Source of the DNA: Bacteroidia bacterium
Lineage (GTDB): Bacteria > Bacteroidota > Bacteroidia > NS11-12g > UBA955
Assembly: GCA_044341025.1 (NCBI GenBank)
Contig: JBIISM010000003.1
Location: 117,105 to 181,104 of the forward strand
Direction of reading: 5' to 3'
Length of the DNA: 64,000 bases
Under the pieces are notes generated by a model. That model worked only from the letters and a program-made list of their open reading frames with translations. It did no database searches and was not told where the DNA came from. Below, piece after piece: positions 1-63,545 of this stretch. How positions within the stretch are numbered: position 1 is the stretch's first letter; each line of letters begins with the position of its first letter. Both the position numbers and the translations under genes were made by a program.

Positions 1-879
1 ATTGTTTCCTGCGTATTTAACAGCATTTTGAAACAGATTACTAAAAACCAATTTTAAAGAAATTTCATCTCCTAATATGCGCGTTTCTTGTTCATGGAAA
101 ATAAATTGGCCTGTAAAATTTGGTTGGCATAAAACCAAATCTGCAGTCTTGTGAATCAATTCTGTCAAGTCTATCATCGACATGTTGTAATTGTAACTTT
201 TGCCATCAATTCTGGTCGCTAACAATACATTGTCCAACAATTCATTTAGTCGGTCTGAGTTGTTGACGATTTGCTGTATTAAGGTTCCTTGAATTTCAGC
301 ATCAATTTTTCTATGCTGCAGGGTTTGAGAACTTAACTTAATAGCAGTTAATGGCGTCTTCAATTCATGGGTTACAGACAATAAAAAATTGTTCTGCATT
401 TTGTTTAGATTTAACAATGACTCTAATTTTCCGAACACCCATAGCACGCCTGAAATGACTAAAATGGTAAAGAATATAACTTCTGAATAAAAAGCCCTTT
501 GTTTCTTAATAAAGGTTTTTTGGATGGCTTTAAATTCTTCAGGGGAAATATCTATTTTTAGTAAATTGTATAAATTTCCATTGCTGTCAACGAGCGACAA
601 ACTGGTCTTTATATTATACCTATTATTTAGGTTTTGGTGCAATGAATTAATTTCCTTTACATGCTTTTTATAAATAGAGTATGGAGATTGGGTCTCACTG
701 GCTTGTAACTTATCTATGTATTCATTTATCTGATTGTGTATGACAAATGAATTTAACTTCAAATTGTTGGATTCCAATTTGTACTCCTTTTCTGTATAAT
801 TAATGAATGAATACAACCACCAGCCGAAAACCGCGATGATGTATACAATTACAAAAACAAGAAATAGTCTTAACTTCAA
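1..879 (-). CDS. Sensor histidine kinase, partial; the C-terminal HATPase part runs past the window start. N-terminal TM segment plus a HisKA H-box
   Basis: The minus-strand translation reads ...LSVTHELKTPLTAIKLSSQTLQH..., a classic H-box, upstream of a hydrophobic N-terminus (LFLVFVIVYIIAVFGWWLY). The ORF is open to position 1. The start is uncertain; a TTG near 879 is the best candidate and there is no in-frame ATG. Confidence 0.6.
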   Translation of the reverse strand, partial: MKLRLFLVFVIVYIIAVFGWWLYSFINYTEKEYKLESNNLKLNSFVIHNQINEYIDKLQASETQSPYSIYKKHVKEINSLHQNLNNRYNIKTSLSLVDSNGNLYNLLKIDISPEEFKAIQKTFIKKQRAFYSEVIFFTILVISGVLWVFGKLESLLNLNKMQNNFLLSVTHELKTPLTAIKLSSQTLQHRKIDAEIQGTLIQQIVNNSDRLNELLDNVLLATRIDGKSYNYNMSMIDLTELIHKTADLVLCQPNFTGQFIFHEQETRILGDEISLKLVFSNLFQNAVKYAGNN

Positions 880-930
880 AATCAGATTATATTTGTGAGC
901 TACAAAATTAAGGCATTTCAAACATCTCAG

Positions 931-1161
931 ATGGAAGCAAAATATACTTTACAACAATTGGCACTAAGAAATGGGCAAGACAAACCAGAAATTTGGGTTG
1001 CCTATTTGGGCAAAATTTACGACGTTACAGAAAGTCGACTTTGGCGCAATGGCAAGCATTACGAGCACTGGGCAGGGCAAGATTTAAGTGCAGAACTTAA
1101 AGATGCACCCCATACTGAAACCGTATTCCAGAAATTTAAGCAAGTGGGTATTTTAATCTAA
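931..1161 (+). CDS. Cytochrome b5-like heme/steroid-binding domain protein (COG4892-like). The ORF track starts it at GTG 895; the ATG at 931 is more plausible
   Basis: The 76-aa product reads ...TLQQLALRNGQDKPEIWVAYLGKIYDVTESRLWRNGKHYEHWAGQDLSAELKDAPH..., which matches the pattern of the predicted heme/steroid-binding domain family. It is followed by a strong terminator. Confidence 0.5.
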   Translation: MEAKYTLQQLALRNGQDKPEIWVAYLGKIYDVTESRLWRNGKHYEHWAGQDLSAELKDAPHTETVFQKFKQVGILI

Positions 1162-1193
1162 TTATGACAGTATTTTTACATTAAAACATCTGC

Positions 1194-1230
1194 AAAAGAA
1201 AACGGGTTCCAATTGGAACCCGTTTTTTAT
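1194..1230. terminator. Bidirectional rho-independent terminator between the cyt-b5-like gene (+) and ald (-)
   Basis: A-run, then aacgggttcc-aatt-ggaacccgtt (a perfect 10-bp stem), then tttttat. A-tract on the left and T-tract on the right. Confidence 0.75.
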
Positions 1231-1268
1231 TGTCATTTCTAAAAGAAATGCATGTGGGAAATTGTCAA

Positions 1269-2381
1269 TTATAACACTTGCTCTACCGGAGTGTATGGTA
1301 AGTTGAAAGCATCTGATACACCTTTGTATACCACTTTACCTGCAACAACGTTTAAACCAAGCAATAATTCAGCATTTTGTTTGCATGCTTCTTTCCATCC
1401 TTTGTTTGCCAATTGAATTGCATACGGAAGCGTTGCGTTGGTTAATGCAAGTGTTGATGTACAAGGAACTGCGCCTGGCATGTTGGCCACGCAATAATGA
1501 ATGATTTCATCAATTACATAAGTAGGCTCAGCATGGGTAGTTGCTTTAGTGGTTTCAAAACATCCACCTTGGTCAACTGCAACGTCTACCAATACTGCAC
1601 CTTTTTTCATCAGCTTTAACATGTCTCTAGTGATCAAGTGTGGCGCCTTAGCACCTGGAATCAAAACACCGCCAATAACCAAATCGGCCGTTTTAATTGC
1701 TTGTCTGATGTTGTAACCATTGCTATACAAAGTTTGCACATTTGCAGGCATGATGTCGTCCAATTGTCTTAATCTTGGAATAGAAATATCCATAATGGTA
1801 ACATGAGCCCCTAATCCAGCCGCCATTTTAGCCGCTTGAGTACCTACAATCCCGCCACCCAATACAAGAACATCCGCAGGTTTAACACCTGGTACGCCGC
1901 CTAAAAGAATGCCGCGGCCGCCCATTGGTTTTTCTAAATATTTAGCTCCCTCTTGAATACTCATTCTACCTGCAACCTCACTCATTGGAACCAATAAAGG
2001 CAATGAACGGTCTGCTTTTTCAACAGTTTCATAAGCCAAGCATACAGCTCCGCTTTCAATCATGGCATTGGTTAAAGGTTGGTGAGAAGCAAAGTGGAAA
2101 TAAGTAAACAACAATTGATCTTTCTTAATCAATTTGTATTCGCTTTCAATTGGTTCTTTAACTTTAACAATCATATCAGCAATTGCATATACTTCCTCGA
2201 TTGTTGACATTAACTGGGCACCTGCCTCAATGTATTCCTCATTTGTAAAAGCACTTCCCTCGCCTGCAGCACTTTGCACATACACTGTATGTCCATGTCT
2301 TACAAATTCACTAACACCTGCTGGGGTTACCGCAACACGGTTTTCGTTATTTTTAATTTCTTTTGGAACTCCTATGATCAT
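1269..2381 (-). CDS. ald: Alanine dehydrogenase
   Basis: 370 aa. N-terminus [23 protein letters not shown]... and an NAD-binding [24 protein letters not shown] Rossmann motif, both typical of the AlaDH/PNT family. Length fits Ald. Confidence 0.8.
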
Positions 2382-2533
2382 ATTCTTATATATTTTAAAA
2401 AAAGTTGTGCAAAAATAGTTAATTCCATTTGTATAGAAAAAAAATGTTTAAAATTGAGGTTTTTAAAAGGTGTTTTATTGATGGTAAATATTGCGTAACA
2501 CAACAATAAGATGCGCATATTCAAAAAAAATAT

Positions 2534-2541
2534 TACATTTG
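2534..2541 (+). promoter_or_regulatory. Candidate Bacteroidota sigma-A -7 element (TAnnTTTG) for the pntAA operon
   Basis: tacatttg lies 8 nt upstream of the pntAA ATG (2549). The same motif-to-start spacing recurs at ruvB, glnN, ftsE and the ORF at 19857. Confidence 0.3.
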
Positions 2542-2548
2542 CCGGTAA

Positions 2549-3649
2549 ATGATCATTGGAACTGTAAAAGAGACCAAAGCCTCTGAAAATCGCGTCGCTT
2601 TGAGTCCCGAAGTAGTAAAAAACCTAATTAAACAAGGATTTGAATGTTGCATCGAAGCAGGTGCAGGTGTTGCTTCAAATTTCTCAGATGCAGCCTACGA
2701 AACTGCAGGAGCAAAAATCATACAAACAGCTAAAGACGTATGCAATCAATCTAATGTTTTGGTAAAAGTAAATGCACCATCAATTGAGGAGATTGCAAAT
2801 CTTAAGGAGGGCTCTGCATTATTATCCTTTATTTACCATTTAAACAATGCAGATTTAATTTCCCAGTTAAATGCCAAGAGAGTAACTGTATTTTCAATGG
2901 ATGCTATACCGCGTATTTCACGTGCTCAAAGCATGGACGCTTTAAGTTCACAAGCAAACCTCGCAGGGTATAAAGCTGTTATACTTGGTGCTCAGCATTC
3001 TGCTAGAATATTCCCAATGCTAATGACGGCGGCAGGAACCATTACGCCTTCTAAAGTTTTAATCTTTGGCGCAGGCGTTGCTGGTTTGCAAGCCATTGGA
3101 ACAGCGAAACGTTTGGGCGCTGTGGTCGAAGTTACTGATATCAGACCTGAAACCAAAGAACAAGTTGAATCTTTAGGAGGTAAATTCATCAGTTTCGATA
3201 CGGGTGAAGTTAAGATTGAAGGTGGATACGTAAAAGAAACAAGCGAAGATACCCTAAAAAAACAAAGAGAAATATTAGGCAAACATTTAGCTGCGGCAGA
3301 TATTGCAATCACCACTGCCTTAATACCAGGCAAAAAAGCCCCAATATTAATTACTGAAGACATGGTTAAAACCATGAAATTAGGAAGTGTTATTGTTGAT
3401 ATGGCTGTAGAACAAGGTGGAAACTGCGAGATAAGTGAAGCTGGAAAAGTGGTAGTTAAACATGGGGTTAAAATTGTAGGTGAGGTTAATTTGCCTTCAC
3501 AATTGGCTCAAAATGCCAGCGAAAGCTACTCTAAAAATATCTATGCTTTCTTAACCCACTTAGCCAATAAAGATGGTTTTAAATGGGAAATGGAAGAAGA
3601 AATAACCAAAGGAACTCTGATTTGCAAAGAAGGAAACTTACTAAAATAA
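2549..3649 (+). CDS. pntA: NAD(P) transhydrogenase subunit alpha, part 1 (soluble dI domain)
   Basis: 366 aa. MIIGTVKETKASENRVALSPEVV... and VLIFGAGVAGLQAIGTAKRLGAVVEVTD. It is a paralog of the adjacent ald. Followed by a small membrane subunit and pntB. Confidence 0.85.
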   Translation: MIIGTVKETKASENRVALSPEVVKNLIKQGFECCIEAGAGVASNFSDAAYETAGAKIIQTAKDVCNQSNVLVKVNAPSIEEIANLKEGSALLSFIYHLNNADLISQLNAKRVTVFSMDAIPRISRAQSMDALSSQANLAGYKAVILGAQHSARIFPMLMTAAGTITPSKVLIFGAGVAGLQAIGTAKRLGAVVEVTDIRPETKEQVESLGGKFISFDTGEVKIEGGYVKETSEDTLKKQREILGKHLAAADIAITTALIPGKKAPILITEDMVKTMKLGSVIVDMAVEQGGNCEISEAGKVVVKHGVKIVGEVNLPSQLAQNASESYSKNIYAFLTHLANKDGFKWEMEEEITKGTLICKEGNLLK

Positions 3650-3668
3650 ACAATACGAATAATTTATA

Positions 3669-3974
3669 ATGGAAGCCATATTAACCTTTATCTCCAACAA
3701 TCAATTAATGATCTATATGGTCGTTCTTATGATTTTTGTTGGAATTGAATTGATCGAAAAAGTACCGTCTGTACTGCATACCCCATTAATGAGTGGCGCC
3801 AATGCAATCCATGGGGTTGTAATTATAGGTGCTATTATTATAATGGGACAAGCTGAAAGCATATTTGCAATTGTCCTTGGTTTTATAGCCGTTGTGCTTG
3901 GAACACTAAACGTTGTTGGTGGTTTTGTTGTTACCGATAGAATGTTGGATATGTTTAAAAAGAAAAAGAAATGA
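3669..3974 (+). CDS. pntA: NAD(P) transhydrogenase subunit alpha, part 2 (membrane dII segment)
   Basis: 101 aa, all-hydrophobic with 3 TM helices. Positioned between pntAA and pntB. Its stop overlaps the pntB start in an ATGA (3971-3974). Confidence 0.75.
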   Translation: MEAILTFISNNQLMIYMVVLMIFVGIELIEKVPSVLHTPLMSGANAIHGVVIIGAIIIMGQAESIFAIVLGFIAVVLGTLNVVGGFVVTDRMLDMFKKKKK

Positions 3975-5377
3975 AACAGTCAATTTTAGATATAATTTAC
4001 ATGATTGGTGCCGTGGGTTTCATATTCGGCATTAAAATGTTGGGCAATCCTGAAAAAGCTAAAAAAGGAAATCTTATCGCTGCCTTTGGTATGGGCTTGG
4101 CTATTTTTGGTACTATATTTTTATACGAGCACAATGGCAAACCTCTGAATAATTACGTTTGGATTTTCGGTGGTCTAATTGTTGGGACAGTTATAGGAAC
4201 AATGATGGCAAAAAAAGTCAAAATGACTGGAATGCCACAAATGGTGTCTTTCTTCAACGGCATGGGTGGTGCTTGTGCAGCTTTAATCTCCTTGGTAGAA
4301 TTTAATCATTTATCACATGAAGGAGATTTCACTCAAGCGCCTGTATTAAAATTAATCATCATTTTCCTAGGCCTTATTATCGGTTCAATATCTTTTGCCG
4401 GCAGTATGATTGCTTTTGGAAAATTAGATGAGAAGATAAAAGATAAAACCCTACCACTTCAACAAGTAATTAATGTTGGACTAATGGTGGTTTTGTTAGG
4501 AATTGCTTTCGCCGCTTCTTTCGGACTTATCTCAAACCCAATGGTTCTATATTTATTATTGGTTTTGTCATTAATTTACGGCGTGCTATTCGTGATGCCA
4601 ATAGGTGGTGCTGATATGCCAGTGGTAATCTCTTTATTAAACTCCTTCACGGGAGTAGCTGCAGCAATGGGCGGATTTTTATACGACAACAAGGTTATGT
4701 TGTTTGGCGGTATCTTAGTTGGTAGCGCTGGTACATTGTTAACGGTTGTAATGTGTAAAGCCATGAACAGATCTTTAACCAATGTTCTGATTGGTAATTT
4801 TGGTGGCGGATCTGCAGCAGCAGGAGAAGGCAAAGAAATAACAGGAAGTGTTAAAGAAATTAGCAAAACAGACGCTGCTGTTTTAATGAAATACAGCAAG
4901 AAAGTGGTTATAGTGCCTGGTTATGGATTGGCTGTAGCACAAGCTCAGCACGTTTGTCATGAACTTGAACAAGTATTAGAAGAGGAAGGTGTTGAGGTAA
5001 AATATGCCATTCACCCGGTTGCTGGTCGTATGCCTGGTCACATGAATGTATTGCTTGCAGAAAGCAATGTGAGCTACGATAAATTAATTGAAATGGACGA
5101 CATCAACCCAGAATTTAAAACAACCGATGTTGTACTAATTGTTGGTGCAAACGACGTTGTTAATCCAGCAGCTAAAAACGATCCAAGTTCTCCAATATAC
5201 GGCATGCCAATTTTAGAAGTAGAAGACGCTGCCCATACTATTGTTATGAAACGCAGTATGAAAGCTGGTTATGCAGGTATAGAAAATGAACTTTTCTACA
5301 GCAGTAAAAATAGCATGTTGTTTGGAGACGCTAAAAAGACCTTAACTGATTTGGTTACTGAACTTAAAAGTTTGTAA
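3971..5377 (+). CDS. pntB: NAD(P) transhydrogenase subunit beta
   Basis: 468 aa. N-terminal multi-TM region and a C-terminal NADP(H)-binding dIII region (...KVVIVPGYGLAVAQAQH...GANDVVNPAA...). Confidence 0.85.
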   Translation: MKQSILDIIYMIGAVGFIFGIKMLGNPEKAKKGNLIAAFGMGLAIFGTIFLYEHNGKPLNNYVWIFGGLIVGTVIGTMMAKKVKMTGMPQMVSFFNGMGGACAALISLVEFNHLSHEGDFTQAPVLKLIIIFLGLIIGSISFAGSMIAFGKLDEKIKDKTLPLQQVINVGLMVVLLGIAFAASFGLISNPMVLYLLLVLSLIYGVLFVMPIGGADMPVVISLLNSFTGVAAAMGGFLYDNKVMLFGGILVGSAGTLLTVVMCKAMNRSLTNVLIGNFGGGSAAAGEGKEITGSVKEISKTDAAVLMKYSKKVVIVPGYGLAVAQAQHVCHELEQVLEEEGVEVKYAIHPVAGRMPGHMNVLLAESNVSYDKLIEMDDINPEFKTTDVVLIVGANDVVNPAAKNDPSSPIYGMPILEVEDAAHTIVMKRSMKAGYAGIENELFYSSKNSMLFGDAKKTLTDLVTELKSL

Positions 5378-5392
5378 CATTTAAGATATTAC

Positions 5393-5428
5393 AAAAAAGG
5401 CCGATACGAAAGTATTGGCTTTTTTTTA
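5393..5428. terminator. Bidirectional rho-independent terminator serving pntB (+) and the convergent STN-repeat outer-membrane gene (-)
   Basis: aaaaaa-ggccgatac-gaaa-gtattggc-tttttttt. An 8-bp stem (one G-U pair) with a GAAA tetraloop, flanked by an A-run and a T-run. Confidence 0.75.
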
Positions 5429-5449
5429 TACAGCATGTTAAAATTCCAT

Positions 5450-7399
5450 TTATAAAAACCTAATCCCGAACTGAAATCCAGAAAACATTTTCTGTGCAAA
5501 TCTTGCTTCATGTGTCCAAAATGCATCAGCTCCAAAGTTTTTAAAATGCTTGCTGTAATTGACATCATTTTTATCATTTAAAAGATGGTTCAATGATCCA
5601 GAAGCAAATATAGACAAACCTTTGATGATTCTGTATTCTAAACCTAGATCAAGTCTGTTGTGCAAATTCAAATGGTCTGAACGAAAGTCTATAGTCATAT
5701 GCCTTGAACTTAATGCAGCATTGATGTAAAAATGCTTGCTTAATTTGATGTTTGAACCTAAACCATACCCATAGGTGATGATGGTTGCCGAATCAGAATT
5801 TAAACTTTGTGTATTGATTAACGCAATGCTGTGCAATTTCTCCATACCAGAGCGGTAAGCCAATCCGTTTTGTTTGGATTCGTTTAAACTAAATTCTATT
5901 TGATGCAGTCCATTTCTAACAAAATTAAAAATACCGAACATAAATCCATTAACCGTATCGGCAATGTTGACTATACCCAATTGCATGCCTTGCACTTTTC
6001 TCGCTATATTTAAAAACCCTGCCACTTGCATGCCTTTAATTTCATTGGCTACATTCATAAATCCAGCCGCCTGAAACAATTGCGATTTTCCGCCACTTGC
6101 ATTCATAAAACCTGCTACTTGAACCCCTTCGGTCCCTTTACTTAAATTCATAAACCCAGCAGCTTGTATGCCATGAATGCGTCTTGTTACATTCATAAAT
6201 CCTGCACCTTGTATGCCTTCCATTTCCATGGTGTTTAAATTCATAAATCCAGCCATTTGTATTCCATGCACAAATCCGTGGTTCATGTTGTAAAAACCTG
6301 CACATTGAATGCCATTCATGCTGCTTAAATTGTGGTTAAAAAACCCTCCAAATTGAGCTCCGTTGACTTCGCCTCCTACAAGGTTACCAAAACCAGAAAA
6401 CTGTGCCCCATGCATGTTTGATTTTAACACATTCAAAAAGCCTCCGAATTCTGCGCCATCCAAACTGCCATTATATCCTCCAATCAAATTAATCGACAAT
6501 TTATTTTGCACCAATCCACTTAAAATACCATTGGTTCCAATACCTGGCAACAAACTAATTTGCCAATCGCGCTGAAATGAATCGCGTATGTTTTTCTCAT
6601 TAAGCTTTTGCACTGTACCCACAAACCATTTCCCCACGCGGGTATCTTCAACTTTAATTTTCTTGCTTACATTATTGGTATCACTCCATGCAATAAGAGT
6701 TTGAGTGCTGCTGTCTGTATTTAAAGTATCTGTAATGATAGGAGAAGCCACGAATGGGCTGTCAGTTTCGGTTTGTAATTCAGAAGGAAAAACAGACTGC
6801 ATACTCATGTGCATTTCTATTAAACCGTTGTTCTGAAATTTCACATTGATCAGAGTATCTCTATAGTCTTTCTTCGTATACTTAACGTAAATGCTTGGTG
6901 ACTTACATACAACGGCCAAACGGTAGTAACCATAATCAGAGGAAACTGTACCAGAAAGCGTTTGCTTTTCATAAATACTACTGCCAACGATTCCGTCTCC
7001 ACTTTGTGAATTTCTAATATACCCAGTAATTAAATAATTGTATTTATTAGACTGGCCTGTTTTATCATCTATCTGAGTGGTTTTAGCTACTGGTTTTTTC
7101 TGTAAAATTAAATGGGTTCCTATTTGTTGGTATACAATCTCATGGTTGAATAGCTGATCTAAAACTTCTCGAACACTGCGGTTTTCAGCCATTATACTTA
7201 CTATTTTATTTCCCTTTAATACATTGCTGTTGTAGGAGAAATGAAAGTTAGCAGTTTCTTCAATAATGCCAAGTGTTCTTGACATGGTCTGCTTAATAAC
7301 CTTGATTGATATTTTTCGCTCTAATATGGCTATATTACTTTGAGCAAAAAGCCCATCGAAATGGCTAAGCAAAGTCAAGCAAATGATTAATAGTCTCAT
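5450..7399 (-). CDS. Outer-membrane protein: signal peptide, STN (secretin/TonB N-terminal) signalling domain, CarbopepD_reg-like domain, ~210-aa tandem G-x-Q-x-A-G-F-x-N repeat region, C-terminal beta-barrel ending in Phe
   Basis: The track ORF 5450..7450 starts at an upstream Met. The signal peptide (MRLLIICLTLLSHFDGLFAQS) begins at the Met at 7399, whose ATG overlaps the FecR stop as ATGA. STN-like N-terminus: NIAILERKISIKVIKQTMSRTLGIIEETANFHFSYN. Then ITGYIRNSQSGDGIVGSSIYEK...YGYYRL, then at least 10 repeats (GIQAAGFMN, GIQMAGFMN, GVQVAGFMN ...). The C-terminus alternates hydrophobic residues and ends ...GFQFGIRFL. Confidence 0.6.
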   Translation of the reverse strand: MRLLIICLTLLSHFDGLFAQSNIAILERKISIKVIKQTMSRTLGIIEETANFHFSYNSNVLKGNKIVSIMAENRSVREVLDQLFNHEIVYQQIGTHLILQKKPVAKTTQIDDKTGQSNKYNYLITGYIRNSQSGDGIVGSSIYEKQTLSGTVSSDYGYYRLAVVCKSPSIYVKYTKKDYRDTLINVKFQNNGLIEMHMSMQSVFPSELQTETDSPFVASPIITDTLNTDSSTQTLIAWSDTNNVSKKIKVEDTRVGKWFVGTVQKLNEKNIRDSFQRDWQISLLPGIGTNGILSGLVQNKLSINLIGGYNGSLDGAEFGGFLNVLKSNMHGAQFSGFGNLVGGEVNGAQFGGFFNHNLSSMNGIQCAGFYNMNHGFVHGIQMAGFMNLNTMEMEGIQGAGFMNVTRRIHGIQAAGFMNLSKGTEGVQVAGFMNASGGKSQLFQAAGFMNVANEIKGMQVAGFLNIARKVQGMQLGIVNIADTVNGFMFGIFNFVRNGLHQIEFSLNESKQNGLAYRSGMEKLHSIALINTQSLNSDSATIITYGYGLGSNIKLSKHFYINAALSSRHMTIDFRSDHLNLHNRLDLGLEYRIIKGLSIFASGSLNHLLNDKNDVNYSKHFKNFGADAFWTHEARFAQKMFSGFQFGIRFL

Positions 7400-57042: not shown

Positions 57043-57153
57043 CTAAACCTTTACGTTTGGGCAAAATTAAACTAATTCGTTTTAAATTAAGTCTTGCAAT
57101 AATAATCAAGTATAAGTATTTGTATTGAAACTAAACATCAAGTTTGAATTAAC

Positions 57154-57390
57154 TTGGCGTTTCAAACCATTAAATTGAATATGGACGGTTTTGAATTCAT
57201 TGCACAAGCACTCGGTGAAGGATTGATTCACCCATTCCTAAAATCAATTGGAACCCTTCTGCGTTGGCCATTTTTATTTAGAAAATACACCCTTAAAGAA
57301 ATCTATAAAAAACCTTGGAACACAAGGATTGGGGGGATTGGAATTGCGGTATTAGTTTGCTTATTGTTAATTTATAAATACTATTTTTAA
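57154..57390 (+). CDS. Hypothetical small membrane protein, 78 aa
   Basis: ORF with a C-terminal TM helix (GGIGIAVLVCLLLIYKYYF) in an AT-rich segment. Weak support. Confidence 0.25.
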   Translation: MAFQTIKLNMDGFEFIAQALGEGLIHPFLKSIGTLLRWPFLFRKYTLKEIYKKPWNTRIGGIGIAVLVCLLLIYKYYF

Positions 57391-57576
57391 ATATAAATAT
57401 TCGAATTAATAAAAAGAATTAACTTTATGTATTGTAAATGTATTTTAAAAATAAAAAAGGTTGCTATTTTAAAAAATCTTTGTCCAAAAAAAAATAAAAA
57501 TCAATGCAAATAAATTATTAATTAATACATTAACTTTGATGTTAAAAGATGAATTTAAATTTTAAATAAAAAATAT

Positions 57577-57957
57577 ATGAAATTAAATAAAAACCAAATA
57601 GCAATTGCTTGCTTTTTTAAGGTGAACACTATTTTATCAAAAACCAATATTAGTCAAGAACTTGCAGAAGTTTTTATTCAAGTTTTAGATGAAACAGATG
57701 AACTTTATTACGATTCTGATGATTATCAGCTAGTTCGTGCCAATAATTCAAACATTGAAGAATATGATCTTGAACAACAATTTGGAGCTTTAGAATTACT
57801 TACAAAGTATAGAATTCTTCTCGTTATTCTAACGTCATTTAGCAGACACTTTGGGCAAATGGAATATGACGATCAAAGAAAAGTCAATTGGTACAATTTA
57901 GGCTCTCAGAATGGCGTAGATATGGATGCCTGGAAAAAATGGCAAAGAGATAGATAA
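57577..57957 (+). CDS. Hypothetical acidic protein, 126 aa
   Basis: ORF inside the AT-rich tRNA-proximal segment. Rich in Asp/Glu (LDETDELYYDSDDYQL). Immediately followed by direct repeat DR1, which looks like a terminator. Confidence 0.35.
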   Translation: MKLNKNQIAIACFFKVNTILSKTNISQELAEVFIQVLDETDELYYDSDDYQLVRANNSNIEEYDLEQQFGALELLTKYRILLVILTSFSRHFGQMEYDDQRKVNWYNLGSQNGVDMDAWKKWQRDR

Positions 57958-57968
57958 TAAACAATATA

Positions 57969-58019
57969 TTTTCTTTTTCTATGCCTCCAAATGCTCAAAT
58001 CAGAGCCTTTGGCATTTTG
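57969..58019 (+). repeat. 51-bp direct repeat, copy 1 (DR1): terminator-like hairpin CCAAAUGCUC-AAAUCA-GAGCCUUUGG followed by CAUUUUG
   Basis: Seen directly: 51/51 nt identical to 58401..58451. It brackets the tandem array on the left. Confidence 0.8.
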
Positions 58020-58029
58020 CTGGAAAAGG

Positions 58030-58400
58030 GACAGGATTACCTAAAGGTGGTCCTAAAGGGGTGGCTTAACAAAGAATGAAGAATGTGCTGGCCTGCTTCG
58101 CATGCCTTCCATTTTTTATTTTGTAAAATTGCTCAAAGCAAAGGCAGAGCTTTAAGACAGGATTACCTAAAGGTGGTCCTAAGGGAATGGCTTAACAATG
58201 AAAACAAAATCAGAAGTCTGCTGCGAATGAATCTTAAAAGGACAGGATTACCTAGCGGTGGTCCTAAAGGGGTGGCTTAACAAAGAAAACAAAATCAGAA
58301 GTCTGCTGCGCATGAATGTTAAAAAGACAGGAGTACCTAACGGTGGTCCTAAGGGGGTGGCTGAACAAATAAAACAAAATCAGAAGTCTGCTGCGCATCC
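58030..58400 (+). repeat. Tandem array of an ~85-bp unit (2 full and 2 partial copies) beginning gacaggattacctaaaggtggtcctaaaggggtggcttaacaaagaaaacaaaatcagaagtctgctgcgcatgaatgttaaaaa
   Basis: Seen directly. Unit starts fall at 58030, 58156, 58241 and 58326. Units 2 and 3 are 85 bp with a few substitutions. Each unit holds an internal near-duplication cctaaagg(g)gtgg. The unit 2/3 junction encodes ATG-...-TAA MNLKRTGLPSGGPKGVA (58227..58280). Confidence 0.8.
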
Positions 58401-58451
58401 TTTTCTTTTTCTATGCCTCCAAATGCTCAAATCAGAGCCTTTGGCATTTTG
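58401..58451 (+). repeat. 51-bp direct repeat, copy 2 (DR2)
   Basis: Identical to DR1. Lies between the tandem array and the tRNA-proximal terminator. Confidence 0.8.
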
Positions 58452-58455
58452 TGGC

Positions 58456-58485
58456 ATAAAAAAAGCCGCTAACGCGGCTGATTTT
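58456..58485 (-). terminator. Rho-independent terminator downstream of tRNA-fMet
   Basis: On the minus strand: AGCCGC-GUUA-GCGGCU followed by UUUUUUUU. An A-run on the other side makes it bidirectional. Confidence 0.7.
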
Positions 58486-58495
58486 GTTTCCTTTG

Positions 58496-58567
<72 letters not shown>

Positions 58568-58665
58568 ATTTTTTGGGACTGCAAATATACAGGTTATTAT
58601 TAAATTTACAAGATATTAATCTTAAGTTTATTAAATCTGGTCGAATTTGAATGCATTTTTAGGTG

Positions 58666-60081
58666 CTATTCTTGCTCCAATTCAGCAGCAACATTGCCCA
58701 TGTGCATGTGGCTCGAAAAACTTCCAAGGCGGTCTAAAATTGGATATATGCCTTGCTTCTTTTTTAATTTGTAAGCCAATATATACAATATGGCCTCGGT
58801 GCTAATTAAAATTGTTTTCTTAATGTCTGTGTTCCAATTGATATAAGAAACAAATGAGTTGTATAAATCGCTAAAGTGATTTGAGACCAAAATATAACTT
58901 ACTTTCTTGTATCCCTCTTTGCTCAATGACTTTAAATTATCTGAAATATACTCCTTAACAATTCTGCGGTCGTTTTCTTTTTGGAAATCTGCACTGCTTG
59001 GATGGGCATCCAATACGATGGCAATATTTTCTTCGCGAAACTTAAGCACCGCATAGGCATTTTTTTCTTTGTTTTGATCCAATACCTCAACCTGAAAATC
59101 CAATTGTGAAAATGCTTCTAAAACCAAGGCTGAAAAACTATTCTCTGCATCATCTTGAACATACCCATTACTTAACAAGCGGCTTAAGCGGGGCATTAAA
59201 TATTCTTGGTAATTTATGAGATCCTTGCTCGCCATTGCATGGTCAATTTGCACTTGACTTCTCTCCTCGAGCTCAGCATCTTGAGGAGTCTCTGCGTTTG
59301 CAGATAGAACTGTAATTGCTTCTTTTACAAGGGCTTTTATAGGCCCAGCCTTTGGGCTCGGGATTAATTCTGCGACGTAAGACAAGGCCTCAGGTTTAAA
59401 TTTGAAATTCCATAAAGCATGCTCAAGTTCCCAATAACTTACCTCTCTACCAGCTATTTCTTCAATAATGCCTTTAACTTGGTTGTATACCGATAAATAA
59501 GCCTCATAAGTTGCCTTTTGGGTTTTTTGCTCTTCCCATACATCCAACTCCTTGAACGAACTGATTAAATTTGGGTATAAAATTGGCCATTTTTTATAGT
59601 TGCTAATTTGCCAAAAATAGGACAAGAAAAAACCAACCGATCCAGGATATGGCGCATTGTGTTTGTCTTTCGATTTGGTGTAAATGGCAATTGTCATTTT
59701 TTCCAAAGTTTCTATTTTGCTTAAGGCCTCTCTTAAATTTTTAGGCTCTGTTATAAGTTCTTTTAAAGCTGCCTCTAATTTGTCTAAACTGTTCTCGTTG
59801 TATTTAATCATTTGATTAAAATACATTTGTCCCAATTTAGCTGTGAATCCCCATAAATTATTGTGTTTGTTGTAACTGTCTAATGCCGTTCTGAAATCGT
59901 TCACATCAAAATCACCTTTCATGAAATTATGAATGATAATTTTAACCACCTCGATGGCATACACGCGGCTGTCGTCAATATTATTGCCGCTCTGACCCTC
60001 GGCATCCTTTTCTGTCTTTACAGTTGAAACATGCTCGTTCCAAACCTCCAGAATTTGACTCCTTAAATGTTCTTGTGACAT
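58666..60081 (-). CDS. Hypothetical 471-aa protein with no recognisable domain; possibly a C-terminal PD-(D/E)xK-like nuclease fold
   Basis: Long ORF with no signal peptide or TM helix and a mostly helical N-terminal two-thirds. The C-terminal third (FSALVLEAFSQLDFQVEVLDQNKEKNAYAVLKF...IAIVLDAH) alternates beta-strand and helix with acidic and Lys positions, reminiscent of restriction-endonuclease-like folds but not diagnostic. Confidence 0.5.
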   Translation of the reverse strand: MSQEHLRSQILEVWNEHVSTVKTEKDAEGQSGNNIDDSRVYAIEVVKIIIHNFMKGDFDVNDFRTALDSYNKHNNLWGFTAKLGQMYFNQMIKYNENSLDKLEAALKELITEPKNLREALSKIETLEKMTIAIYTKSKDKHNAPYPGSVGFFLSYFWQISNYKKWPILYPNLISSFKELDVWEEQKTQKATYEAYLSVYNQVKGIIEEIAGREVSYWELEHALWNFKFKPEALSYVAELIPSPKAGPIKALVKEAITVLSANAETPQDAELEERSQVQIDHAMASKDLINYQEYLMPRLSRLLSNGYVQDDAENSFSALVLEAFSQLDFQVEVLDQNKEKNAYAVLKFREENIAIVLDAHPSSADFQKENDRRIVKEYISDNLKSLSKEGYKKVSYILVSNHFSDLYNSFVSYINWNTDIKKTILISTEAILYILAYKLKKKQGIYPILDRLGSFSSHMHMGNVAAELEQE

Positions 60082-60878
60082 TGCTATTCCTTTTAACAGT
60101 TACTCGTAATCAAGATAATTAAATCCTAGCTTGCCGCTATGCAGAACAGAGAAATAAAGATTGTAATAAAATAGTTGAATTGATCTGATTTTTAGCTGTT
60201 AATCCGGGCGCAATAAATGAGCCCCCCGGCATAAGACCGGCCTTGAATTGTGATTTCATTTCTTTGTGCATTTGTGTTTGTCGTTTTGGTGACCTGCATC
60301 CCTTCGGATGGAAATTATGAAGTTTGCTTTTGTTTTATTTTTACTAAAGCATAAGCTCGCCTCACTTTTTCTTCGGTGCAAAGATGATAAAAATTTTAAG
60401 TATTATATACTAATTACCCTAATTCTTATGGTATTTTTAATCCTATACCTTTAACTTACATATAAGTAGCTGATTAATTGATTGTTAACAATTTGTGTAT
60501 AATGTCAAAATGAAGGAAATTGTAGTATATAGATGGTTTTTTTAGTATTATTTACTCAAAAAATATTCTTCAAAATTTGATTTAAAATATAAATTCCTGC
60601 TATTCAGGCTGATGAATCAAACAAAATAGATCAATATTAACCTGACGTATTTTCTCTACTATTTGTTTAATATTTTGGTGGGGCATGATTCCGTGTTTAA
60701 AAATAGACAATATTGAGGCCTATAATTTGATTCATAACATAGGTTTTCTCTTAATTTTATATTAACGAAGACAAAGCACTTAAAGCATTTCGCAATATTT
60801 ATTGCCATCACTTGTGCGTCGTTTTAATGCCTATAAAATTTCTTACTTTATCATTGACATTTTAAGTAAATTTGCTTT

Positions 60879-61256
60879 ATGAAGCCAGATATAAAAACGG
60901 AAAAAGACATTGAAAACTGGCAAAATGCTTTTTATTCCAAACTACTTGCCGACCCTATAACTGCGCCTAAATTTGTACACCTTGACTTGCCAAAACATTT
61001 GCCTAGAATCGTCGAATTTTGGGCTTTTGTTTTACTTGAAAAAGAAGGTTACAAAACGAATGTATTTGAAAAACATATGTTTCTTGGTCTTGAAAAAATT
61101 CACTTTGATAAATGGCTGAAATATTTCTTTGAAACAACAAATGAATTGTTTGAAGGCCCCAATGCTGAAACAGCCAAAAATAGGGTAAAATTATTGGCCA
61201 CAACATTTATGCATAAATTAAGTGGTGAATATTTCCTCTTTGATGATGTAAAGTAA
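60879..61256 (+). CDS. Truncated-hemoglobin-like globin (group II/III trHb-like)
   Basis: 125 aa. F-x-x-W-L-K-x-F-x-E-T (FDKWLKYFFETT) and the surrounding helices resemble truncated-hemoglobin signature regions. Tentative. Confidence 0.4.
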   Translation: MKPDIKTEKDIENWQNAFYSKLLADPITAPKFVHLDLPKHLPRIVEFWAFVLLEKEGYKTNVFEKHMFLGLEKIHFDKWLKYFFETTNELFEGPNAETAKNRVKLLATTFMHKLSGEYFLFDDVK

Positions 61257-61298: not shown

Positions 61299-63545
61299 GT
61301 GTTATATTTGTTCTTCATATTTATGAAGATACTTTTTACCTTTCTGTTTTTTGTTTTCTTTACGGCTTTTACATTTGGCCAAACTTCTTATTCAAATAGC
61401 AGTAAGATGGCCCTAAATCCCGACTTGAAAGACCTTACACTTATTGACGAACAAGGATTTATTCATGCCTTGGCCTATTGTTCAAGCAATTCCTGTGACT
61501 CAGAATTATTGGAAAAGGGAATAAAAATAAATGGCCATTTTGGCCCAGTAATTTCTATACAAGTAAAATTAGAGCAACTTGAATCTATCCAAAATCTTTC
61601 TTGTATTACCTATGTCGAAATTTCATCAAGAAGCAACTCTACCCATTTTAAAAATGACATAGAACGACAAACAACATCAGTAGACAAAGTGCAAAATGGA
61701 TTGAGCAATGGATTGCCAATGAATTACACTGGAAAAGGCGTGGTGGTTGGTATAGTGGATGTCGGTTTTCAATGCAACAACCCTACATTTTTCACTGCAG
61801 ATGGGAAAAGAAACCGTATTGTACGCTATTGGCAACAAAGCAATAAGCAAGGTCCAGCACCAAGTGGATTTAATTATGGCACTGAACTTATAGACTCAAA
61901 TACCATCATTCCCGCAAACGACCTTGATGGCTCTCATGCGACCCATGTGGCAGGCATCGCCGCGGGAAGCGGGCACACCACAACAAATTTACAATATAGA
62001 GGTGTGGCACCAGAGGCAGAATTGGTTTTTGTTTCCATTAAATACAGCAACGACACTTTGGCCGGCTCTGCCCTAGGTGATTACGTTGTTGCAAACCCCA
62101 CTATTTTAGATGCCTATAAATACATCTTTGACTATGCAGCATCGGTTGGAAAACCGGCAGTCATTAATTTGAGTTGGGGCATGCACACAGGCCCACACGA
62201 TGGTAAAAGTTTGTTTGATATTGCGACTGAATCATTGGTTGGCAAAGGCAAGGTATTGGTTGGTGCAAATGGAAATGAAGGCGACAACAACATGCATTGG
62301 AATTATCAATTTAACCGTGATACAGCATCAACCATAATGATTGAAAACAATAGACAATGGAGACAAAGAGAAAGTGTTTATTCAGATTTTTGGGGCAGCA
62401 AAAACTCCAATTTTGCAATCCAAATTGAGTTTATTGATACCGCTAAAAAAAGCATAGCTAAAAGCCCATTCATCTATTCATCATCTGATAAGGTTTCTGT
62501 TTTTAAATTTAACACCGACAGCTCAGTGTTTTCGGTGGCATTTATTTGTCAAGCCAAAAACCCATTGAACCAAAAGCCAAACATAACCGTTATGGCCGAC
62601 CATAAGAACCAAAGAAAGTACGCAATAATTGCCCATATAATTTCAGACAGCTCTTTGGTTCATGCATGGAATAGTGGCGCCACCCGAGAATGGACAAGTG
62701 GTTCGTTTACCAATAAATTAAATAAACTTGATTTTTCGAAGTCATATACCAATGGAAACACCAAGTACACAGCGGGCGAAAATGGTGGCAGCTCCAAAGC
62801 GGTCATTTCAGTTGGTGCTCTTGCCGCTAGAAGTGCCTTCAGAAATGTTAAAGGTGTTTGGGTAAACGATTCAGGATACGTGGTTCCGGTTAACATCACC
62901 CGTTTTTCGAGCAAAGGCCCAAGTGTGGATGGTCGCATAAAACCCAATATTTCAGCACCAGGTTTTTATGTGCCTTCCGCGATAAACAACAAACAATTTA
63001 GTGGCTGGATGCTCGATAAAACCTTATTAAAATCAGTGTTTAGAAATGATACACAATATTGGTCCGTTTCCAGTGGTACCTCTATGGCAGCACCTCATGT
63101 AACTGGTATTGTTGCTCTGATTTTACAAGCCAATCCTAATCTTACAGCCGCTCAAGTGAAAACCATTTTAGAAACAACTGCAACGGTTGATCAAAACACT
63201 GGCGCAGTTCCTAACAACAGTTATGGGTATGGAAAGGTTAATGCATACAATGCAGTTTTAATGGCCCTGCAATACGCAGGAATAAATGCTTTAAACAAAG
63301 GCAACAATTTGACCGTTTACCCAAACCCATTCGATTGCGAATTGAATATTGTATTGCCTGTTATTTCAAACTCTGCCAAGATTGAAATTTTTAGCTTAGA
63401 TGGAAAATTAGTCAAATCCAGTCATTTAGATCCTCAACAATCCACCGACTTAACGATTCAAACCTCTGACCTAGAAAAAGGGATTTACATTTTGAAATTC
63501 ACGAATGGTGGAGAAATATTCATTTTGAAATTAGTCAAAAACTAA
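61299..63545 (+). CDS. S8-family subtilisin-like serine peptidase with a T9SS type-A C-terminal sorting domain
   Basis: 748 aa. Catalytic triad blocks VVGIVDVGF (Asp), DGSHATHVAGIAAG (His) and SGTSMAAPHVTGIVALI (Ser). The C-terminus LTVYPNPFDCELNI...GIYILKFTNGGEIFILKLVKN matches the T9SS CTD. An alternative start is at 61323. Confidence 0.8.
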   Translation: MLYLFFIFMKILFTFLFFVFFTAFTFGQTSYSNSSKMALNPDLKDLTLIDEQGFIHALAYCSSNSCDSELLEKGIKINGHFGPVISIQVKLEQLESIQNLSCITYVEISSRSNSTHFKNDIERQTTSVDKVQNGLSNGLPMNYTGKGVVVGIVDVGFQCNNPTFFTADGKRNRIVRYWQQSNKQGPAPSGFNYGTELIDSNTIIPANDLDGSHATHVAGIAAGSGHTTTNLQYRGVAPEAELVFVSIKYSNDTLAGSALGDYVVANPTILDAYKYIFDYAASVGKPAVINLSWGMHTGPHDGKSLFDIATESLVGKGKVLVGANGNEGDNNMHWNYQFNRDTASTIMIENNRQWRQRESVYSDFWGSKNSNFAIQIEFIDTAKKSIAKSPFIYSSSDKVSVFKFNTDSSVFSVAFICQAKNPLNQKPNITVMADHKNQRKYAIIAHIISDSSLVHAWNSGATREWTSGSFTNKLNKLDFSKSYTNGNTKYTAGENGGSSKAVISVGALAARSAFRNVKGVWVNDSGYVVPVNITRFSSKGPSVDGRIKPNISAPGFYVPSAINNKQFSGWMLDKTLLKSVFRNDTQYWSVSSGTSMAAPHVTGIVALILQANPNLTAAQVKTILETTATVDQNTGAVPNNSYGYGKVNAYNAVLMALQYAGINALNKGNNLTVYPNPFDCELNIVLPVISNSAKIEIFSLDGKLVKSSHLDPQQSTDLTIQTSDLEKGIYILKFTNGGEIFILKLVKN

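Follow-up and report, generated by a model that had tools for sequence, protein, structure and literature searches.

A FokI-type protein with a degenerate active site, encoded next to the initiator tRNA gene in a lineage of Bacteroidota, as a probable domesticated relative of Type IV-like restriction enzymes

In a stretch of 64,000 nucleotides from a Bacteroidia bacterium (GenBank assembly GCA_044341025.1, contig JBIISM010000003.1, positions 117,105 to 181,104 of the forward strand), hereafter the window, with positions counted from its first nucleotide, an open reading frame (ORF) of 471 amino acids (aa) lies beside the initiator tRNA gene, tRNA-fMet, and is preceded by a long divergent upstream gap. 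An initial annotation, made from the sequence alone, placed both features correctly and took the ORF for an orphan that, together with a structured RNA, could form a single-gene accessory or defence module. Comparison with homologs leads to a different view. The protein combines a probable N-terminal specificity domain of the Type IV type, common to McrB-GTPase and GmrSD_N fusion proteins, with a C-terminal domain that is predicted to adopt the FokI cleavage-domain fold and has lost the catalytic motif. To judge from the sequence comparisons, its gene is a fixed chromosomal gene under strong selection that occupies the same place across a lineage of Bacteroidota. With moderate confidence, we favor the reading that the gene product descends from a Type IV-like "sensor + FokI" restriction enzyme, has been domesticated and binds DNA without cleaving it; it would act as a reader or regulator and possess its own promoter and small ORF.

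Homologs, fold and active site of the 471-aa protein

The protein is no orphan: a large protein collection contains 107 full-length homologs of 440-475 aa, with identity ranging from 94% down to 29%. One of these, from Flavobacterium sp. UBA4197 (P0077), is named [quoted passage not shown] in NCBI. The 471-aa protein itself has no direct match in Pfam, including PF09254 (E up to 1), or in NCBIfam, and matches no family of PADLOC-DB 2.0 at E up to 1. A phmmer search of the PDB sequences returned noise only, and the full-length family profile had no match among these sequences at E up to 1. In the literature, we found general reviews of restriction-modification (R-M) and Type IV systems only, and no described family of this kind. 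The link to FokI was reached only through the homologs, hhalign and fold search. Specifically, the Pfam FokI_cleav_dom profile (PF09254) matches 24 of the 41 aligned members of the family, with a best E of 2.3e-12, and Mrr_cat matches 18 of the 41, the window protein being in neither set; hhalign aligns the family profile with the FokI cleavage domain at E 2.6e-5 and a probability of 75%. Membership in PF09254 at the sequence level is thus transitive rather than direct, because the homologs and the family profile match but the window protein does not.

The AlphaFold2 model built from the 41-member alignment (mean predicted local distance difference test, pLDDT, 80.7) consists of an all-helical N-terminal domain (N-domain; aa 1-229, pLDDT >90), a disordered linker (aa 230-286) and an alpha/beta C-terminal domain (C-domain; aa 287-471). 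In a Foldseek search of the PDB with this model, FokI (2fok and 1fok) and Nt.BspD6I were recovered at E 2-9e-4 and probability 1.0; with the R.BspD6I small subunit (R.BspD6I2, rank 12) included, the matches span E 2e-4 to 7.5e-3 and probability 0.97-1.0. The initial suspicion that the C-terminal third resembles PD-(D/E)xK nucleases was therefore right with respect to the fold, as these matches and the hhalign alignment attest, but the catalytic residues are missing here.

To compare active sites, we combined the homologs of the 41-member alignment with 80 loci from species-representative genomes. The family splits cleanly into two subfamilies. Subfamily B consists of 52 full-length proteins, none of them more than ~43% identical to the window protein. 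All possess the first catalytic Asp and the Lys; at the middle acidic position, 51 have Asp and one has Glu (PD...[D/E]AK). Subfamily A consists of the window protein and 20 others that are 41-94% identical to it, and the first catalytic Asp is replaced in all 21 (by Y, F, T, C, L or N). In the hhalign register, Y343, D358 and H360 of the window protein correspond, respectively, to D450, D467 and K469, the catalytic Asp residues and Lys of FokI. The middle Asp is retained in the window protein, which reads Y343 ... D358-A-H360 and is devoid of an active PD-(D/E)xK motif. The Lys position is unconstrained in subfamily A, being occupied by H, N, A, E, T, F, Q, Y, R, M or V; the Lys is kept only by L018 and by 4 of the 5 members of the basal subgroup (L020-L022 and L070; the fifth, L023, has Asn). 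About 20 more C-domain positions that are at least 90% conserved in subfamily B are relaxed in subfamily A, for example, E317, G335, G337, G339, R340, A361, Y362 and G365, and the comparison of the C-domains of the two subfamilies revealed no new acidic or basic residue specific to subfamily A. From the loss of the motif, we infer that the window protein is inactive as a nuclease.

FokI-type domains cleave as dimers. In the same register, R373 and E377 correspond to FokI D483 and R487 of the dimer interface; R373 is invariant and E377 nearly so in both subfamilies, with the charges swapped relative to FokI, so that retention of dimerization via the FokI-like helix is plausible. These residues would also suit an inactive subunit of a two-component nuclease, in which the N-domain recognizes the target and the dead domain recruits or activates a competent partner encoded elsewhere. 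The presence of the small subunit of R.BspD6I, a heterodimeric enzyme, among the Foldseek matches agrees with such an arrangement, as does purifying selection on a C-domain that has lost catalysis. Nevertheless, no second FokI-like or other nuclease gene adjoins the gene in ~20 loci and no paralog is present within the 64-kb window, and we consider this alternative unlikely.

Relative to homologs that are 87-94% identical, the ratio of nonsynonymous to synonymous substitution rates (dN/dS) ranges from 0.035 to 0.084 for the N-domain and from 0.048 to 0.081 for the C-domain, and the linker has a higher value than either domain. Given the low values in both domains, the gene is not a decaying pseudogene. 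In the N-domain, 42 positions show at least 90% conservation in each of the two subfamilies. A midpoint-rooted neighbor-joining tree without bootstrap support recovers subfamily A as monophyletic, a topology that fits a single inactivation event.

The N-terminal domain and the genomic context of the two subfamilies

Modeled alone, the N-domain reaches a pLDDT of 90.5 and a predicted template modeling score (pTM) of 0.87, and it has no representative in Pfam, NCBIfam or PDB and none among viral models. Against 1.84 billion representative proteins, the N-domain profile detected 519 cluster representatives (50% identity clusters) with an E-value of 1e-3 or lower, of which 296 reach 1e-10 or lower. 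The domain is N-terminal in nearly all the matches listed. Among the 20 longer N-domain proteins that were scanned, 14 contain AAA_5 (one of these also with the EVE modified-base reader, one with Mrr_N and one with DUF5655) and two contain GmrSD_N. In P0120, residues 251-534 match the Escherichia coli McrB GTPase (NF008457, E 8.7e-92, model positions 163-451), and the N-domain (residues 3-227) is located exactly at the place of the 5-methylcytosine (5mC)-binding domain of E. coli McrB; in other words, the alignment puts the N-domain where the DNA-binding domain of McrB is. Type IV enzymes combine a modular specificity domain with a nuclease, and McrB homologs carry small, swappable DNA-binding domains (PMC11090510). 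Judged by its position and partners, the N-domain is most probably a specificity module. Fusions of the N-domain, which precedes either a McrB GTPase (with EVE or Mrr_N inserted in some cases) or GmrSD, are seen in P0120, P0133, P0134, P0162, P0175, P0207, P0214 and P0173, and the N-domain family is a candidate new Type IV specificity domain that is worth defining separately.

Subfamily B is spread patchily, being represented in Flavobacterium, Chryseobacterium, Pedobacter, Dysgonomonas and Saprospiraceae and, outside Bacteroidota, in Desulfobacter, Spirochaetes, Pontiella and Bdellovibrio. At loci L088 and L091, the subfamily-B gene is the last one in an operon, with genes that overlap or are spaced by 13 nt, which also encodes a HSDR_N_2/N6_Mtase/Eco57I-type methyltransferase and an HsdS-like subunit. 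According to tblastn, a methyltransferase is encoded within 6 kb of 26 subfamily-B loci, upstream and co-directionally in at least 23 of these, and an S subunit is encoded at about 20 loci; the same type of search with the methyltransferase and S subunits of the B operons detected none in the 64-kb window and none at the subfamily-A loci. Further neighbors of subfamily-B genes are defence-like, including Type I HsdR, DUF7149/DUF7814 and AAA_15/21 ATPases, and the relatives P0077, P0061 and P0044 have no match in PADLOC-DB 2.0. The proposed defence connection thus holds for the wider family, through the B operons and the McrB- and GmrSD-type occurrences of the N-domain, but not for the window protein itself.

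The L088 operon (924-7341) additionally encodes a 487-aa protein with a weak nucleoside 2-deoxyribosyltransferase-like match, as is also the case at L038, L076 and L081. The L091 operon (1-7332) includes genes for a 149-aa protein, an AAA_15/AAA_21 ATPase and a 210-aa protein, as at L036 and others. Operons of these two types may represent uncharacterized multi-gene R-M or defence systems.

Subfamily A was found only in metagenome-assembled genomes labeled Bacteroidia or Chitinophagales. Its gene order comprises an S8 peptidase of the type IX secretion system (T9SS), a gene of ~125 aa, the subfamily-A gene and tRNA-Met, with PMT_2, SpoU and MutS further on. Loci of 50-94% identity share the arrangement S8 peptidase / 125-aa gene / (MoxR-DUF58 operon) / gene / tRNA-Met. 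The tRNA-Met gene follows the subfamily-A gene in at least 10 loci (the window, L001/2, L004, L006, L009, L010, L012, L013 and L019 among them) and is 4.6 kb away from it in L017. The operon SpoIIM(/DUF8413)-DUF4129-DUF4350-MoxR(AAA_3/5)-DUF58 is located directly upstream of the gene in 13 subfamily-A loci, including those of 87-89% identical relatives; its coordinates are 3220-9319 in L004, 2249-8501 in L006 and 3234-9487 in L007, and it is also present in L009, L010, L012, L013, L016, L017, L019 and L024. The gene is present, with the same flanks, in every related locus found. Syntenic orthologs from 94% to ~50% identity, which the initial annotation itself had named as evidence contrary to its proposal, contradict its idea that the gene is accessory and occupies a variable place linked to a tRNA.

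What does vary is the segment that separates tRNA-fMet from the PMT_2 gene, beyond the tRNA as seen from the 471-aa gene. In the window (57043-58494), it contains 85-bp tandem repeats and an orphan 126-aa ORF (57577-57957); in L001 (11587-14156), a NAD_binding_10 gene and an 84-aa gene; in L004 (11670-12655), two tiny ORFs; and in L006 (11583-21389), an island headed by a phage integrase that also includes NADAR, PRTase-CE and a 1986-aa ART-PolyVal/helicase protein. The 85-bp repeat array of the window (57965-58460, plus strand) lies just beyond the tRNA-fMet terminator. Within it, the tandem repeat at 58154-58398 comprises 2.9 copies with 90% matches, another copy begins near 58030, and the repeat core occurs 4 times in the window vs 0 expected. 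An identical direct repeat of ~50 bp, ttttctttttctatgcctccaaatgctcaaatcagagcctttggcattttg, brackets the array at ~57970 and ~58405. Upstream of the orphan 126-aa ORF, the region 57350-57650 is extremely AT-rich (GC 0.12-0.18) and includes a 19-bp tandem repeat at 57362-57399.

These observations bear on the possibility that the window protein is an active single-gene anti-phage nuclease, that is, a tRNA-adjacent defence protein that cuts invader DNA by means of a variant PD-(D/E)xK site. Its fold is indeed FokI-like, the middle Asp, D358, is in place, intact relatives reside in R-M operons and defence-type neighborhoods, and the integrase-led island after the same tRNA in L006 indicates that the neighborhood can take in mobile DNA. 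However, the uniform absence of the first catalytic Asp throughout the clade, the unconstrained Lys position and the relaxation of the active-site frame that is invariant in the relatives argue against cleavage, and so do the lack of a PADLOC match and of a methyltransferase or specificity partner nearby. Furthermore, the vertical inheritance of the gene, with flanks conserved down to ~50% identity, is unlike the patchy spread of subfamily B. An active nuclease accordingly appears highly unlikely to us.

The region upstream of the gene

The gap between the 471-aa gene and the divergent 125-aa gene (60082-60878) is 797 bp long. The GC-enriched islet noticed in it does exist as a local rise, with a GC content of 0.38-0.46 at ~60150-60300 and 0.19-0.32 elsewhere in the gap. 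On the gene strand, 420-550 nt ahead of the start codon are conserved in relatives with 76-94% identity, and two elements persist well beyond the close relatives, namely, a small ORF and a promoter-like block.

The small ORF encodes MHKEMKSQFKAGLMPGGSFIAPGLTAKNQINSTILLQSLFLCSA, which is 44 aa long, or 40 aa when counted from the second ATG (60259). The window and 16 of the 16 relatives with at least ~49% identity have a sense ORF of 37-44 aa here, and the basal subgroup lacks it; the ORF ends 35-57 nt before the main start codon at all loci except L018 (1 nt). Six close sequences contain no indels in this ORF, their variable columns are distributed over the three codon positions as 10/7/19, and the ratio of nonsynonymous to synonymous differences (pN/pS) is 0.39 in frame compared with 1.17 and 1.70 in the other frames. 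The annotation of the Joint Genome Institute (JGI) independently called this ORF as a gene in two metagenomes. An overlapping frame, "NTNTHNYE...", is open in several loci but was rejected on account of its inconsistent start and length and pN/pS >1. The Pro and Gly codons of the small ORF yield the GC islet and the CCGGG...CCCGG string, so that what had been taken for an RNA structure coincides with a conserved small ORF on the gene strand. Most likely, the islet corresponds to a conserved upstream frame of 44 codons together with the gene promoter, and the frame may specify a small partner protein or serve as a translated leader.

The second element, at 60378-60413, reads TTAGTATnnnATACTTAAAAnTTTTnnCAT(C/A)TTTGC and is the best-conserved non-coding element of the region. 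It is found in almost every aligned upstream region of subfamily A, including those of ~41% identical members, with the exceptions of L023, where the copy is degenerate, and L015, where the contig ends within the block. The CATCTTTGC part resembles TAnnTTTG, which we take to be the -7 consensus of Bacteroidota and on which the assignment of a promoter role is based; a box of the same type, TATATTTG, precedes tRNA-fMet at 58582-58589. The block is thus a putative promoter/operator, with a predicted leader of ~290 nt. A second palindrome, TTAGTATTATTTACTCAAAA (AGTA-N-TACT), is located ~145 bp upstream of the palindrome of the block, and if the two are paired operator sites, they would suggest a dimeric transcription factor or autoregulation. 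A scan for sigma-70 promoters and terminators gave counts not above those in shuffled sequences, the sole terminator being that of the tRNA, and a search across the loci with a strict pattern of the conserved block found nothing, because the spacing is variable.

The initial annotation interpreted the islet as a structured RNA and drew a parallel to type I toxin-antitoxin loci; in a locus of this kind, the hydrophobic plus-strand peptide would be paired with an antisense RNA. Short hairpins are present in the sequence, six relatives share an unchanged CAUCC/GGAUG stem with a single change in its loop, and the upstream region is conserved among the close relatives, all of which could be taken in favor of this interpretation. 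The tests turned out otherwise. At the gathering score, Rfam 15 detects only the tRNA in the whole 64-kb window, and in E-value mode all matches in 60000-60950 have E of at least 1.7, the best one being Bacteroidales-1 with 17.9 bits vs a threshold of 60. Minimum free energy z-scores relative to dinucleotide shuffles are -0.51 for the gene strand and -1.45 for the plus strand, showing no excess stability, and RNAalifold on six relatives yields a covariation term of +0.28 kcal/mol, with compensatory changes in 1 of 66 pairs.

As to the individual hairpins, their letters are literally present (CATCC-CTTC-GGATG at 60297-60310; CCGGG...CCCGG at ~60204-60229) but their stability does not exceed chance, and the purported UUCG-type tetraloop is not one, given that the loop closed by the 5-bp stem reads CUUC in the plus-strand direction and GAAG in that of the gene, rather than C(UUCG)G. 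The CCGGG-N16-CCCGG stem, which falls within Pro and Gly codons of the small ORF, was discarded as a candidate: 4 of 6 close relatives retain it (L011 with a double change), but it is broken in L001 and L009. The loop of the CAUCC/GGAUG hairpin changes from GAAG to GUAG in L011, the stem offers no variation by which to judge covariation, and the hairpin was not found in the more distant group; it is compatible with a small leader hairpin, for which its invariance is no evidence. The plus-strand mini-ORF exists as a frame of 48 or 45 aa (60308/60317..60454) but is not conserved: among relatives with a main protein 76-94% identical to that of the window, L001, L010 and L004 lack it, L009 has a truncated version, and in L011 it is rewritten. 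With no conserved peptide, no covariation and no Rfam family, and with a conservation pattern that suits the minus-strand ORF, a structured regulatory RNA or a type I toxin-antitoxin system appears extremely improbable.

Less improbable, although still doubtful, is that the small ORF is a regulatory leader, such that its translation or the leader RNA tunes the expression of the 471-aa gene. The position and length of the ORF, which at all loci ends close to the main start codon, are conserved while the peptide diverges fast between subgroups, and nucleotide conservation is highest around its start codon. RNAalifold also predicts pairing between the middle of the ORF and the region just before the main ATG, a structure that we did not adopt because no compensatory changes accompany it. 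The in-frame pN/pS, for its part, indicates some selection at the amino acid level.

The features of the locus are collected in Table 1. The tRNA displays the hallmarks of a bacterial initiator (C1-A72 mismatch and GGG/CCC anticodon stem) and is followed by a terminator hairpin at 58464-58479. The divergent 125-aa neighbor (60879-61256, plus strand) has a sub-threshold match to the bacterial-like globin family PF01152 (E 0.015; 15.9 bits vs a cut-off of 21) and, in all close relatives, is paired with the downstream T9SS-tailed S8 peptidase (61299-63545).

Table 1. Features of the locus in window coordinates
Feature	Position	Strand	Remarks
471-aa ORF	58666..60081	minus	Two-domain protein of the FokI type (subfamily A) whose catalytic site has degenerated
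N-terminal all-helical domain, aa 1-229	59395..60081	minus	Predicted specificity/DNA-recognition module, no curated family
Linker, aa 230-286, disordered and fast-evolving	59224..59394	minus	pLDDT <50; 0-16% identity among distant orthologs
C-terminal domain with predicted FokI cleavage-domain fold, aa 287-471, degenerate active site	58669..59223	minus	Foldseek, hhalign
Codon Y343, at the position of FokI catalytic D450	59053..59055	minus	hhalign register and family alignment
Codons D358-A359-H360, at the positions of FokI D467-T-K469	59002..59010	minus	Asp retained, Lys lost
Small upstream ORF, 44 aa	60137..60271	minus	Conserved; stops 55 nt ahead of the 471-aa gene
Hairpin CAUCC-GAAG-GGAUG in the presumed 5' leader	60297..60310	minus	Stem invariant in 6 close relatives
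Promoter/operator-like block	60378..60413	minus	Palindrome TTAGTATnnnATACTTAA, then CATCTTTGC
Second, weaker palindrome AGTA-N-TACT	60539..60561	not assigned	Partly conserved in the alignment
Initiator tRNA-fMet	58495..58567	minus	tRNA-Met(CAT)
Hydrophobic mini-ORF of the initial annotation	60308..60454	plus	Not a conserved gene

Probable domestication of a restriction enzyme and comparison with known systems

In the evolutionary scenario that we favor, the ancestor would have combined a helical N-terminal recognition domain of ~225 aa with a FokI-type cleavage domain, as subfamily B still does. In the ancestor of subfamily A, a single event would have removed the first catalytic Asp, after which the Lys and the glycine-rich frame of the active site would have drifted; the N-domain and the core of the C-domain, including the FokI dimer-interface helix, would have been held by strong purifying selection. 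The gene would then have settled as a fixed chromosomal gene just upstream of tRNA-fMet. The N-domain would bind DNA, possibly at a modified base or a specific site, with the dead FokI-like domain as a dimerization or DNA-contact scaffold, and the protein would act as a reader or regulator, not as a nuclease. Inactivated PD-(D/E)xK domains that are kept for nucleic-acid binding have precedents (PMC11090510). Transcription would proceed from the conserved block, starting ~7 nt after CATCTTTG (around 60370), and the leader would carry the conserved upstream ORF of 40-44 codons, encoding either a small partner protein or a translational leader. Homology, fold, the loss of the catalytic residues, purifying selection, synteny and the conservation of the ORF stand on the comparisons themselves and deserve higher confidence than the scenario as a whole, in which DNA binding, dimerization, the promoter, translation of the small ORF and the biological role are inferred.

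Several points weigh against this scenario. All of its steps are derived from sequence and predicted structure. The FokI sequence that was used in hhalign was entered by hand, although it reproduces the published numbering of D450, D467, K469, D483 and R487; the tree is a simple one that lacks support values. PD-(D/E)xK enzymes sometimes relocate catalytic residues, and D358 persists here. Synteny is imperfect, in that neither the window nor its 94% identical relative has the MoxR-DUF58 operon here, which indicates a recent deletion or relocation in the window lineage. As for the small ORF, its peptide sequence diverges fast between subgroups, and the evidence of coding, namely, the excess of third-position changes (19 vs 10 and 7) and the pN/pS of 0.39, is moderate.

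A more far-reaching version of the scenario can be advanced tentatively, its chances being somewhat short of even. Here, a restriction endonuclease would have been exapted into a non-cleaving reader of DNA or epigenetic marks that became a core gene of freshwater Bacteroidota (Chitinophagales-like) and is co-expressed with a lineage-specific peptide of 40-44 aa, and the ~225-aa N-domain would be an unnamed specificity module interchangeable among FokI-, McrB- and GmrSD-type Type IV proteins.

Already known are the fold, the modular combination of a specificity domain with a PD-(D/E)xK nuclease and the retention of inactivated nuclease domains for binding. New are the unnamed N-domain common to FokI-, McrB- and GmrSD-type proteins, the clean split between the active, mobile, R-M-linked subfamily B and the inactive, vertically inherited, stand-alone subfamily A, and the conserved small upstream ORF. 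If the scenario is true, the N-domain is a new recognition module that is combined with three restriction effectors (the FokI cleavage domain, the McrB GTPase and GmrSD), and identification of its ligand could point to a DNA-modification specificity and a class of reagents (sensor + FokI) that are both new. Subfamily A would then be a clean case of domestication, with one inactivation, long purifying selection and loss of the methyltransferase and specificity partners, that bears on the recruitment of defence genes for host functions. The locus also calls for caution: the combination of an orphan, a tRNA and a long intergenic region is insufficient for calling a defence island, and what looks like a structured, GC-rich islet can turn out to be a small ORF that escaped annotation.

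Among the known systems, FokI (PF09254; PDB 1FOK/2FOK), Nt.BspD6I and the small subunit of R.BspD6I are alike with the window protein in the alpha/beta fold of the C-terminal domain (Foldseek probability 1.0). With FokI, the similarity at the family level spans the PD...DxK region and the following dimer helix. The differences lie in the active site, where FokI has D450 and K469 and the window protein, itself below every Pfam threshold, has Y343 and H360, and in recognition, for which FokI employs three winged-helix subdomains, whereas the window protein possesses one all-helical N-terminal domain. Type IIS R-M systems include a cognate methyltransferase, whereas none is encoded in the 64 kb of the window. 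Subfamily B, exemplified by P0077, is the closest counterpart, with the same two-domain architecture and length, 29-43% identity and the 42 shared N-domain positions; it differs in keeping the catalytic motif and in its patchy spread, often at the ends of operons with an N6-adenine methyltransferase and an HsdS-like subunit, and it is absent from PADLOC.

McrB (E. coli PRK11331) and GmrSD are connected to the window protein through the N-domain, which precedes McrB-type GTPases, in the place of the 5mC-binding domain, and GmrSD_N, and the Type IV logic of a specificity domain joined to a nuclease is also alike (PMC11090510); in contrast to these systems, the window protein has neither a GTPase motor nor a McrC partner, and its nuclease domain is dead. 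In this last respect, it resembles the iPD-(D/E)xK domains of the McrC homologs of CoCoNuT systems, in which, likewise, the nuclease fold outlives the motif, presumably for nucleic-acid binding or assembly (PMC11090510). Those domains stay inside multi-gene defence operons, whereas the window protein is the product of a stand-alone, vertically inherited chromosomal gene.

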